Origin: an uncultured virus (IMG/VR IMGVR_UViG_3300033757_000130)
Taxonomy: Duplodnaviria > Heunggongvirae > Uroviricota > Caudoviricetes
Length of the DNA: 20,000 nt
Virus record (IMG/VR): IMGVR_UViG_3300033757_000130
Direction: 5' to 3' (one strand)
Made by a program: the position numbers and the translations under genes. Positions 2,063 through 2,836 of this stretch are shown here, piece by piece (the first letter of the stretch is position 1; each line of letters begins with the position of its first letter). The notes under the pieces were generated by a model. The model ran no database searches. It was not told the DNA's origin and was given only the letters and a program-made list of their open reading frames with translations.

Positions 2063-2072
2063 CTCTTTAATA

Positions 2073-2080
2073 TATTTATA
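2073..2080 (-). promoter_or_regulatory. T4-type late promoter TATAAATA inside element 1
   Basis: Exact TATAAATA 10 nt upstream of the leader's first hairpin. Confidence 0.7.
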
Positions 2081-2108
2081 TAAGTAGCATTTCATTTTTT
2101 GTATTTTT

Positions 2109-2155
2109 GTGCCGATTCATATCAACTACTGAAGATAGTTGATTTTTCTCGGCAC
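2109..2155 (-). repeat. Left-end subterminal palindrome of element 1 (predicted TnpA-binding hairpin)
   Basis: Outer stem GTGCCGA...TCGGCAC encloses TCAACT..AGTTGA followed by TATGAA. Element 2's left end has the same layout. Confidence 0.7.
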
Positions 2156-2170
2156 GTTTCTATAAAATGA

Positions 2171-2198
2171 AAAACACCAAGAAAATTCTTGGTGTTTT
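2171..2198 (-). terminator. Intrinsic terminator after the 131-aa gene
   Basis: AAAACACCAAGAA-tt-TTCTTGGTGTTTT inverted repeat with T-tail, about 20 nt after the stop. Confidence 0.8.
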
Positions 2199-2219
2199 AA
2201 GTTTTTTAATCTGTGTAGA

Positions 2220-2615
2220 TTAGATATTTGGGAAGTTCTTCGTATATGGAGAATTTCCACCATTCCAAGCAGAAACGCCTTCATACTGATCGTCGCGAAT
2301 TGCGTCGATACCACTAGAAGCATAACCGCTTGCAACTTCTTTCTTGTAATCTTCTTCCAAATTAATATATGCAACAGCATATTCATCTGGGAAGATACGA
2401 CCAGAAGTGTCGGACCATGCTTCCTGTGGAAGTACAGTATTGAAGTACTTATTCCACTTACCAGAGACAAATCCTTCTTCAGCTTCTGTATAGATACCAT
2501 CTAGATAGGAATTAGCTTTCCAATCGCCAGAAACTGGACGGCATCCTACGTCTGCAGGATAGTCGTTACCAAGGTTATATAATCTACCAACAATTTTTAC
2601 ATCTTCAGCTGCCAT
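2220..2615 (-). CDS. Hypothetical late protein, 131 aa
   Basis: AGGAG RBS, TATAAATA promoter upstream, terminator downstream, plausible composition. No family recognised. Confidence 0.8.
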   Translation of the reverse strand: MAAEDVKIVGRLYNLGNDYPADVGCRPVSGDWKANSYLDGIYTEAEEGFVSGKWNKYFNTVLPQEAWSDTSGRIFPDEYAVAYINLEEDYKKEVASGYASSGIDAIRDDQYEGVSAWNGGNSPYTKNFPNI

Positions 2616-2684
2616 AATATTTACTCCTAAAATATAGCAAAGTTATGACAAATAAGTAAGTTTACTTTTTATTATTTGTTAATA

Positions 2685-2692
2685 TATTTATA
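2685..2692 (-). promoter_or_regulatory. T4-type late promoter TATAAATA
   Basis: Exact motif in the context CTTATATAAATATATT upstream of the 131-aa gene. Confidence 0.7.
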
Positions 2693-2820
2693 TAAGACAA
2701 CATAATACTTTTATACAAGAAATGCGAAAAGATAGATACCATGCTTTTAGGCTGGTATATGAATTTTCGCTATATTTTAAATATATTAAAAAGTTTTACA
2801 AAATTTCAAAATAAAACTTA

Positions 2821-2828
2821 TATAAATA
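2821..2828 (+). promoter_or_regulatory. T4-type late promoter TATAAATA inside element 2
   Basis: Exact motif 8 nt upstream of the leader's first hairpin. Confidence 0.7.
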
Positions 2829-2836
2829 TAATATAA

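Follow-up and report, generated by a model that had tools for sequence, protein, structure and literature searches.

Two TnpB elements with internal late-promoter boxes in a T4-like phage are candidates for RNA-guided homing

The 20,000-nucleotide (nt) stretch of DNA analysed here, hereafter the window, comes from an uncultured virus of the Caudoviricetes (IMG/VR record IMGVR_UViG_3300033757_000130). Near one end it carries two transposon-like elements, elements 1 and 2, which lie on opposite strands on either side of a resident gene for a 131-amino-acid (aa) protein, and each of which encodes TnpB, the ancestor of Cas12. UvsY-, gp46- and gp47-like genes follow element 2. The octamer TATAAATA, which occurs inside both elements and ahead of the resident gene, is the T4 late promoter, read by gp55. 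An earlier reading of this DNA, made from the letters alone (the sequence-only reading), had proposed that the two elements are adapted to the phage cycle and that they could spread by cutting element-free genomes during co-infection. We report that adaptation to phage is well supported by comparison with related elements and that RNA-guided homing is a plausible account of their spread. TnpB has been described as a nuclease (Karvelis et al., PMC8612924), and a role in homing has been described for TnpB together with its omega-RNA (Meers et al., bioRxiv 10.1101/2023.03.14.532601).

Results

Empty alleles delimit two precisely inserted elements

The ends of both elements were set by comparison with the nearest record, a 36.9-kb fragment (G001) that is labelled 'provirus' in its source though it is T4-like in appearance. 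G001 matches positions 1–685 and 4146–7892 of the window at 99% and positions 2161–2716 at 77%, and both TnpB segments are missing from it. Its empty sites give the boundaries listed in Table 1, which are ambiguous by 3 nt for element 1 (ATA stands at both junctions) and by 1 nt for element 2. Because these boundaries fall outside the TATAAATA boxes of the two elements, the boxes lie inside the elements. Empty joints were also present in public sequencing runs that contain the locus, which came from anaerobic digesters, landfills and wastewater. We compared four RNA runs among these (X15, X2, X8 and X17) as contigs, which show neither transcript starts nor strand and may include DNA, and we did not count coverage gaps or contig ends as evidence. 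At the site of element 1, a contig of X15 joined 683 to 2165 and a contig of X2 joined 679 to 2161, skipping 1481 nt in each case; at the site of element 2, contigs of X15 and X8 joined 2716 to 4146 or 4158. Both insertions fall within TTTTATA(C), read on the element strand, and both are precise, with no duplication; TTTAT, TTATA and TATAC all fit as the insertion point with its adjacent motif.

The empty site of element 1 in G001 reads catttTATAAATAaagtag and holds an intact TATAAATA box 21 nt before the start of the downstream gene. Insertion of element 1 splits this box, so that the window retains cATAAATA, and the element's own box, which points in the same direction, may compensate for the split downstream promoter. 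Insertion of element 2 breaks no TATAAATA box. The contigs of X17 hold a 44-nt remnant of element 1 (joint 688 to 2121), a scar apparently left when the DNA between short AACTACT repeats in the right- and left-end hairpins was deleted, and one that would destroy the target site of the element.

Intact nucleases in elements that carry no transposase

TnpB1 and TnpB2 are 45% identical, and both match the Pfam families HTH_OrfB_IS605, OrfB_IS605 and Cas12f1-like_TNB above the gathering scores; TnpB1 also matches the structures of ISDra2 TnpB (PDB 8bf8/8h1j) at E 4e-71. When we aligned the two proteins with a homologue from a related contig (G004), the RuvC triad D197, E281 and D361/D363 (D363 in the numbering of TnpB1) was invariant, its residues aligning with the motifs GxDLG, EDL and DRDxNAA, and so were the zinc-finger cysteines. 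The alignment and the matches to ISDra2 structures thus bear out the claim that both proteins keep the RuvC D-E-D.

The ends are those of the insertion sequence (IS) family IS200/IS605: a subterminal hairpin stands at each end, and the elements are inserted precisely 3′ of a short target. Element 1 has near its right end a hairpin similar to that at its left end, and both of these hairpins read ATCAACTnTCTTnAGnAGTTGA. As had been read from the letters, neither element carries tnpA: open reading frames (ORFs) and Pfam searches revealed no Y1 transposase in either element, which have no room for one, or elsewhere in the window. The elements fit only the TnpB-only (IS1341-type) subgroup of IS200/IS605. 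None of five related fragments, totalling 173 kb, had a Y1_Tnp match (0/5). A bin with related TnpBs (G006) gave four Y1 transposase hits, which we rejected as a partner for the elements; they lie on contigs of 37–49% G+C, with no adjoining TnpB of this clade. Because the related elements occupy many loci and have similar hairpins at both ends, we infer that a Y1 transposase acts or has acted on them in trans, and movement to new loci probably still needs one.

A late-promoter box at a fixed place in diverged elements

Both elements have the same layout, which reads 5′ to 3′: a subterminal hairpin, the TATAAATA box ~50 nt further on, a three-hairpin leader, tnpB, and a scaffold that overlaps the end of tnpB. 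The box is part of a 14-nt motif, CTTATATAAATATA, of which the window contains three exact copies, at 2071–2084 (−), 2683–2696 (−) and 2817–2830 (+). These place the motif inside both elements and ahead of the 131-aa gene, and the stretches 2069–2084 and 2681–2696 are identical over 16 nt, both as the sequence-only reading had stated. Allowing up to two mismatches gave four matches to CTTATATAAATATA against 1.01 expected, a number reached in 2 of 200 shuffles. The 16-nt identity with element 1 could arise by chance at about the 1–2% level, a rough, post hoc estimate from base frequencies. We considered and rejected the possibility that the promoter of the resident gene is a remnant of an element, because element-free G001 has the identical 16 nt.

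All six copies of TATAAATA in the window stand ahead of an ORF of the same orientation, at distances of 4–110 nt. The lineage was examined more broadly in eight related contigs (320 kb), using ORFs of at least 80 aa and the 150 nt upstream of them. There, 59 of 132 copies of the octamer (45%) were upstream of a co-oriented ORF, compared with 15 of 132 (11%) when the same sites were read antisense. For 55 control octamers of the same composition the pooled value was 17%, and the best control, which overlaps the TATAAATA motif, reached 30%. This placement strongly suggests that TATAAATA functions as a promoter in the lineage. Late promoters of the lineage do not in general have CTTATATAAATA as their consensus: the string occurs seven times in the 320 kb, with five copies in the left ends of elements and two at the 131-aa gene (one in the window and one in G001).

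The box is also held in place among related elements. From 17 TnpB matches in related DNA we dropped four that lacked the 5′ end or were fragments (G002 263–976, G003 51461–52210, G006:C13 3707–3940 and L024). In 11 of the 13 elements kept, an exact TATAAATA stands 114–131 nt before the ATG, and the other two (L025 and L026) have TATATAAT at this place; the group with 59–64% identity has the box at all six of its loci. Among distant bacterial relatives we looked for an upstream TATAAATA in two sets, finding it at 1 of 10 loci (L030, within the start of the coding sequence) and at 1 of 62 loci (L090, at −245), the latter an approximate count in which several matches start off position 1501.

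Covarying RNA structures follow the box

The structured leader begins ~10 nt past the box, and in both elements its last hairpin, B, pairs with the AGGA Shine-Dalgarno sequence of tnpB. Minimum-free-energy z-scores of the predicted leader folds were −3.6 for element 1 and −3.4 for element 2. Across 11 related leaders, 91% of cells were paired, versus 30–52% with slid partners, and 13 pairs had changed on both sides; none of 500 shuffles attained these values. The loops of hairpins A and B are complementary to each other, with compensatory changes in five of the nine loop-loop pairs. Because it includes G-U pairs, the leader structure is strand-specific; it could in principle form as single-stranded DNA instead of RNA.

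The putative omega-RNA scaffolds end in TTCA(T/C) at the right ends of the elements. Because the scaffold ends there, phage DNA in the flank would supply the guide, which as predicted from the insertion sites would run from ~682 down to 663 for element 1 and over ~4147–4166 for element 2. The core of the scaffold, compared in 15 sequences that include the mini elements described below, has 12 pairs, of which 8 show compensatory changes and none is broken. A search of Rfam for a group I intron (as in an IStron) or a known RNA family matching the leader or the omega-RNA gave nothing relevant at E ≤1.

Mini elements join the box directly to the scaffold

Scanning related DNA with the scaffold core uncovered tnpB-less mini elements, five copies at four loci, with different junctions at the different loci (Table 1). 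In all of them TATAAATA lies 3–12 nt before the first conserved base of the scaffold. The mini element at 12396 of G003 joins a left end of the TATATAAT type to TTTTAAATA near the 3′ end of tnpB, and the junction makes a perfect TATAAATA. In several mini elements the core hairpin has changed in a compensatory way, as from GGTTAC/GTAACC to GTGAAC/GTTCAC. The copy shared by G001 and G005 has lost the 5′ half of the left-end hairpin and retained promoter and scaffold, which argues for selection on the RNA and not on transposition. No other indirect evidence speaks as strongly as this repeated, independent fusion of box to scaffold for RNA synthesis driven by the box and for selection on the guide RNA.

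Just before the scaffold (3990–4060, and 790–850 on the minus strand), tnpB encodes ...LKILN... as ATTTTAAATA, which is one base off the late-promoter box. Junctions of mini elements fall at or near ATTTTAAATA, where there may be a hot spot for recombination or a weak internal start.

The nearest relatives lie on phage-type contigs

Protein searches returned 7,978 hits, of which the best 120, at 63–97% identity, were all metagenomic, on contigs of up to 349 kb; one hit among these 120 was named, a Methanobrevibacter bin at 64%. In a collection sampled at one genome per species, relatives made up 222 of the 452 candidates. The nine best loci (48–66%) fell in three bins (G006, G007 and G008), and the remainder were at 41% or below. 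All three bins contain a gp55-like candidate, and two of them contain gp47 homologues with 44–48% identity to the gp47 of the window; contig G007:C17 carries both a mini element and a gp47 homologue 48% identical to that of the window. Because the bins hold T4-like phage genes, phage DNA accounts for at least some of their contigs, and the whole looks like T4-like phage contigs binned with bacterial genomes. The bins themselves are labelled Paludibacteraceae, Candidatus Coprovivens and Succinivibrionaceae, and have many copies of this TnpB clade (L018–L026). The gp47 homologue of G007:C17 (L101, 46433–47476) has one in-frame TGA.

More distant matches were sampled from the phyla of two of these bins. 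In the phylum of G006, 12 of 400 other genomes matched at E ≤1e-20, with identity of at most 40%; in that of G007, 26 of 398 matched at E ≤1e-40, with identity of at most 42% (two more genomes were unscored). Among known phages, 426 records were hit, all under 60% and with identity of at most 43%. The sequence-only reading had asked whether the nearest relatives are phage-borne, and had named near-identical copies with the same motif, common in bacterial chromosomes, as one finding that would speak against it. The relatives at 48% or above all sit on metagenomic contigs or in metagenomic bins, several of them with T4-like phage genes. In what was searched, no bacterial chromosome held a near-identical element, and ~800 cellular genomes gave identities of at most 42%. 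Together with an octamer that is fixed in 11 of 13 elements despite divergence to 45%, these phage-type relatives make it well supported, on comparative grounds, that the elements are adapted to phage and are not recent arrivals of a host IS.

Filled and empty alleles coexist

Both filled and empty alleles of element 1 were present within run X15 and within run X2, and X8 has element 1 without element 2. In the G001 empty site, the flank from which element 1 would take its guide is unchanged (0 differences over 629–682) and follows the T/A-rich motif. Between the two elements, divergence from G001 is confined to the coding region of the 131-aa gene.

Table 1. Positions of the elements, their parts and neighbouring genes (window coordinates unless another record is named)
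Feature	Position	Strand	Remarks
Element 1, tnpA-less IS200/IS605-type TnpB element, 1481 nt	683–2163	−	Bounded by the G001 empty site
Element 2, tnpA-less TnpB element, ~1430 nt	2717–4146	+	Bounded by the G001 empty site
Target/guide region of element 1	661–682	−	Leftover ATAAATA (682–676), then 5′ untranslated region and ribosome-binding site (RBS) of ORF 1–654
tnpB1, 425 aa	686–1963	−	Intact RuvC D-E-D and zinc-finger cysteines
tnpB2, 397 aa	2938–4131	+	Pfam domains
Left-end nested subterminal hairpin, element 1	2109–2155	−	GTGCCGAG...CGGCAC around ATCAACTAT...TAGTTGAT; read from the sequence and compared with relatives
Left-end nested subterminal hairpin, element 2	2724–2770	+	GCGAAAAG...TTTTCGC
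TATAAATA box, element 1	2073–2080	−	Within the 14-nt motif at 2071–2084; starts 117 nt before the tnpB1 ATG
TATAAATA box, element 2	2821–2828	+	Starts 117 nt before the tnpB2 ATG
TATAAATA box, resident 131-aa gene	2685–2692	−	Same sequence in element-free G001
Structured 5′ leader of tnpB1	1966–2062	−	Hairpin A, small hairpin C, hairpin B (1969–1999)
Structured leader of tnpB2	2837–2932	+	Hairpin B (2898–2928) covers the Shine-Dalgarno sequence
Putative omega-RNA scaffold, element 1	684–822	−	Overlaps the tnpB1 3′ end; ends in TTCA(T)
Putative omega-RNA scaffold, element 2	4055–4146	+	Overlaps the tnpB2 3′ end; conserved core
Mini elements	G001 9257 and G005 orthologue; G003 76023; G003 ~12396; G007:C17 335		Found by scaffold-core scan
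Resident 131-aa late gene	2220–2615	−	Between the two elements
UvsY-like gene	4194–4610	+	PHROG match
gp46/SbcC-like gene	4610–6387	+	PHROG match; frame broken near 4720–4750
gp47/SbcD-like gene	6368–7537	+	PHROG match

Discussion

On balance, and by a modest preference, we favour the view that elements 1 and 2 are two members of a phage-confined, TnpB-only (IS1341-type) lineage that combines late-promoter expression with RNA-guided copying between phage genomes. The comparisons establish the element boundaries, the conserved promoter, the covarying RNAs, the intact nuclease, the restriction to phage-type contigs and the filled/empty polymorphism; promoter activity, cutting and copying are inferences. 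Late in infection, an RNA polymerase of the gp55 type would start a few bases past TATAAATA, and the single transcript would give a little TnpB as well as guide RNA from its 3′ end; in the tnpB-less mini elements the same box would drive guide RNA alone. The resulting ribonucleoprotein would cut the same locus wherever a co-infecting or recombining genome lacks the element there, its target being a T/A-rich adjacent motif within TTTTATA(C) followed by ~16–20 nt that match the guide. Phage recombination would then repair the break from the filled allele, and the element would be over-inherited.

An extended form of this idea, which we put forward only tentatively and regard as possible, not probable, is a two-tier RNA-guided drive in lytic T4-like phages, in which late-expressed TnpB elements are accompanied by guide-only mini elements that borrow TnpB in trans. 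Under such a drive, late promoters would be preferred landing sites because the adjacent motif (within TTTTATA) overlaps TATAAATA, and empty alleles that bear indels, such as those at the site of element 2, would be drive-resistant targets.

Several known systems share parts of this arrangement. TnpB elements of the ISDra2 type (OMEGA) belong to the same family and have the same RuvC triad, a scaffold that runs over the 3′ end of tnpB to the right end, and precise insertion by a short motif. Unlike them, the elements described here have no tnpA, are carried by a T4-like phage of lytic type, possess a late-promoter box of their own and a structured leader whose loop-loop pairs covary, and have their nearest relatives on phage-type contigs. 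ISCaje1–3, reported in 2010 from the T4-like Campylobacter phages CP220 and CPt10, are TnpB-only IS200/IS605 elements with an ATTTT target and no assigned function (PMC2853527). They resemble our elements in being TnpB-only in T4-like phages, in occupying different loci in related phages and in using a T-rich target (here within TTTTATA(C)); the passages of that report that describe them, which predate knowledge of TnpB function, do not mention a promoter, a guide RNA or homing. Campylobacter phages were among the 426 phage records that we hit, outside the best 40 of the 426.

The sequence-only reading had likened the elements to T4 homing endonuclease genes. I-TevI, I-TevII, I-TevIII, segB and mobE are described as having middle or late promoters and RBS-sequestering hairpins (PMC2988022), and the likeness stands insofar as each system has a selfish nuclease gene behind a late promoter, a Shine-Dalgarno sequence within a stable hairpin and a displaced resident promoter; the split downstream promoter and the box of element 1 parallel the embedded promoters that the same source describes for T4 seg and mob genes. 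It does not extend to the fate of the hairpin, considered below, and the two systems also differ in that our elements have transposon ends and would recognize their targets by RNA. TnpB-driven spread of IS605 among plasmid copies (PMC11870625) matches the proposed cutting of an element-free homologue and copying by recombination, with no TnpA; that spread is demonstrated, whereas our elements are natural phage candidates with empty alleles for which copying is proposed. A 2026 review proposes 'transposon non-restorative homing' into co-infecting phages or plasmids and presents the phage case as theoretical (PMC13565253). By contrast, a cyanophage tnpB identical to host copies exemplifies a recent arrival from the host (bioRxiv 10.64898/2026.02.14.705889).

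A literature search of part of the journals found no paper on late promoters or guide-only derivatives in phage TnpB elements. PATE/MITE-like sequences are non-autonomous derivatives of IS200/IS605. The mini elements are like such derivatives in keeping the ends and losing the protein gene, and unlike them in that the deletion fuses a late promoter to the scaffold, giving a guide-RNA-only unit.

A number of results weigh against the homing account that we favour. The bare octamer TATAAATA is not above chance in the window, with six copies against 3.5 expected and 32 of 200 shuffles reaching six. Each of the three empty alleles of element 2 (in G001, X8 and X15) carries indels where the guide match begins, within its first ~12 nt, and would be a poor target for that reason; these could be resistant alleles or ordinary intergenic variation. 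Co-conversion of flanking markers, which the sequence-only reading had suggested looking for, found no support: the outer flanks show 8 differences from G001 over 682 nt and 44 over 3746 nt, a level of 1.2% that is uniform along them and shows no gradient. Related elements lie at many loci and keep transposase-type end hairpins, a distribution that homing alone does not explain. A late transcript would retain the hairpin that occludes the RBS, unlike in T4 homing endonuclease genes; in contrast to I-TevI as described in PMC2988022, the promoter here lies ~100 nt ahead of the gene, which would leave the inhibitory hairpin in late transcripts, and TnpB translation is for that reason probably low at all times. 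The proposed involvement of the neighbouring recombination genes fared unevenly, in that UvsY-, gp46- and gp47-like genes are indeed next to element 2 by their PHROG matches (phrog_231, phrog_77 and phrog_100), but frame analysis showed that the frame of gp46 is broken at the Walker A motif in the window and likewise in G001, whereas G003 has an intact gp46. For homing by cutting of empty genomes, coexisting alleles and the matching guide of element 1 support a precondition only, and neither element 2, with its mismatched guide, nor co-conversion adds to this.

The candidates for the gp55 that would read the box are a further point on this side. In related contigs they are weak matches to phrog_234, with E values from 3.5e-7 to 2.6e-3. 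The match at E 3.5e-7 is in G004, whose TnpB is 73% identical, and is split into two ORFs; others are in G006:C13, G007:C17 and G008:C7. With hmmscan, candidates scored E 6e-6 and 2.6e-3; hhalign gave a weak match with a probability of 64% over 34 columns, with a region-2-like motif; and a search of the PDB, with either a single sequence or a three-sequence profile, gave no match to the candidates. The gene in G004 (L017 1378–1987, minus strand) consists of two overlapping ORFs of 111 and 93 aa. Within the window, we tried the ORF at 7405–7899 as a gp55 and rejected it; a PDB phmmer search gave it no support, and in PHROGs it matched only a family of unknown function.

The points about spread and end structure speak for a different explanation, in which the elements are ordinary IS1341-type transposons moved by peel-and-paste by a Y1 TnpA that acts in trans and is supplied by phage or host. 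Homing between phages would then play no real part; TnpB would only restore excised copies from sister genomes, and the late promoter would serve for expression when host promoters are silent. In its favour, related elements are found at many different loci in related phages, and the insertions are precise, free of duplication and beside a short T/A-rich target. The left and right hairpins are also similar (ATCAACTnTCTTnAGnAGTTGA in element 1), the left copy having no known use for TnpB, and there is a precedent in T4-like Campylobacter phages, where a tnpA-bearing ISCaje4 is reported alongside the TnpB-only ISCaje1–3 (PMC2853527). We nevertheless think it rather unlikely, given that the window and the five related fragments lack Y1_Tnp, that the Y1 matches of G006 are on contigs of 37–49% G+C with no adjoining TnpB of the clade, and that the G001/G005 mini element dispenses with half of its left hairpin but keeps promoter and scaffold. 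The split box at element 1 invites another interpretation, in which the promoter serves the phage: an internal late promoter that reads out of the right end would restore downstream transcription, so that the phage could bear the insertion and would not readily lose it. In G001 an unbroken box stands 21 nt ahead of the gene in question, both elements and the G001 mini element are co-oriented with the next gene, and embedded promoters are described as favouring the retention of T4 seg and mob genes (PMC2988022). This is improbable as a general explanation, however: element 2 interrupts no box, the gene beyond the right end of the G001 mini element has a complete box of its own directly past that end, and the fixed spacing of the box to a covarying leader, or in mini elements to the scaffold, points to expression of the element's own products.

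Still less probable is a weapon or regulator, that is, a system adopted by the phage whose guides, aimed at variant alleles of competing phages, exclude those phages or local markers instead of spreading the element. The nuclease is intact and would by its promoter be late-expressed, the elements flank a hypervariable gene, and homing nucleases can also kill competing phages according to a review (PMC13565253). Yet the guides are fixed by the flank of the insertion site, as in any IS605 element, we saw no array or retargeted guide, and presence or absence varies between near-identical phages, as expected of selfish DNA. Least credible of all, to the point that we give it almost no weight, is the explanation that the elements are inert relics and that the A/T-rich string they share arose by chance or was merely inherited. 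The window has a G+C content of 33%, its octamer count does not exceed chance, and TATATAAT replaces the octamer in two related elements; against this, frames and catalytic residues are intact, both leader and omega-RNA covary, the exact octamer stands at one place in 11 of 13 elements and also in four mini elements, and CTTATATAAATA is found only seven times in 320 kb, with five of these in the left ends of elements.

A role for TnpB in keeping transposons in place by RNA-guided homing has been shown for bacteria and for plasmid copies, and between phages it has only been proposed, according to the review cited above (PMC13565253). The locus offers a natural phage test system for that proposal, with two diverged elements, defined guides, matching and non-matching empty alleles, and guide-only derivatives, and the late promoter ties expression of the elements to the stage at which phage genomes recombine. 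If the homing account is right, mosaicism in large phages would be driven by RNA-guided nucleases as well as by protein homing endonucleases, and elements such as these would be compact, late-expressed TnpB/omega-RNA pairs with A/T-rich adjacent motifs.

Additional observations

A search of known phages with the whole window for near-identity gave no match, and the gp47 homologue of the window is ~30% identical to gp47 of T4-like cyanophages. In gp46 (window 4610–4760), reading in the first frame ends after ...INAKNR, and GKST follows in the −1 frame (PVVGKSTILDAL); G001 has the same break at ~23370–23520, and the G003 homologue reads through (KAPNGSGKSAFLDAI). The break may mark gp46 as a pseudogene or a split gene, or it may be a programmed shift.

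The resident 131-aa gene is hypervariable. Its divergence from the counterpart in G001 is ~26%, against only 1.2% in the flanks, and more alleles are present in the X15, X17 and X8 contigs. Its protein belongs to no Pfam or PHROG family that we could find, and its best Atlas score, 0.86, is under the usable level.

Another TATAAATA box, at 12491–12498 on the minus strand, ends 4 nt before the ATG of a 144-aa ORF, and G001 has the same arrangement at 34741–34748 (−). This 4-nt spacing from box to ATG recurs in 8 of the 59 upstream sites of the related contigs, which suggests either leaderless late mRNAs or a start codon further downstream.

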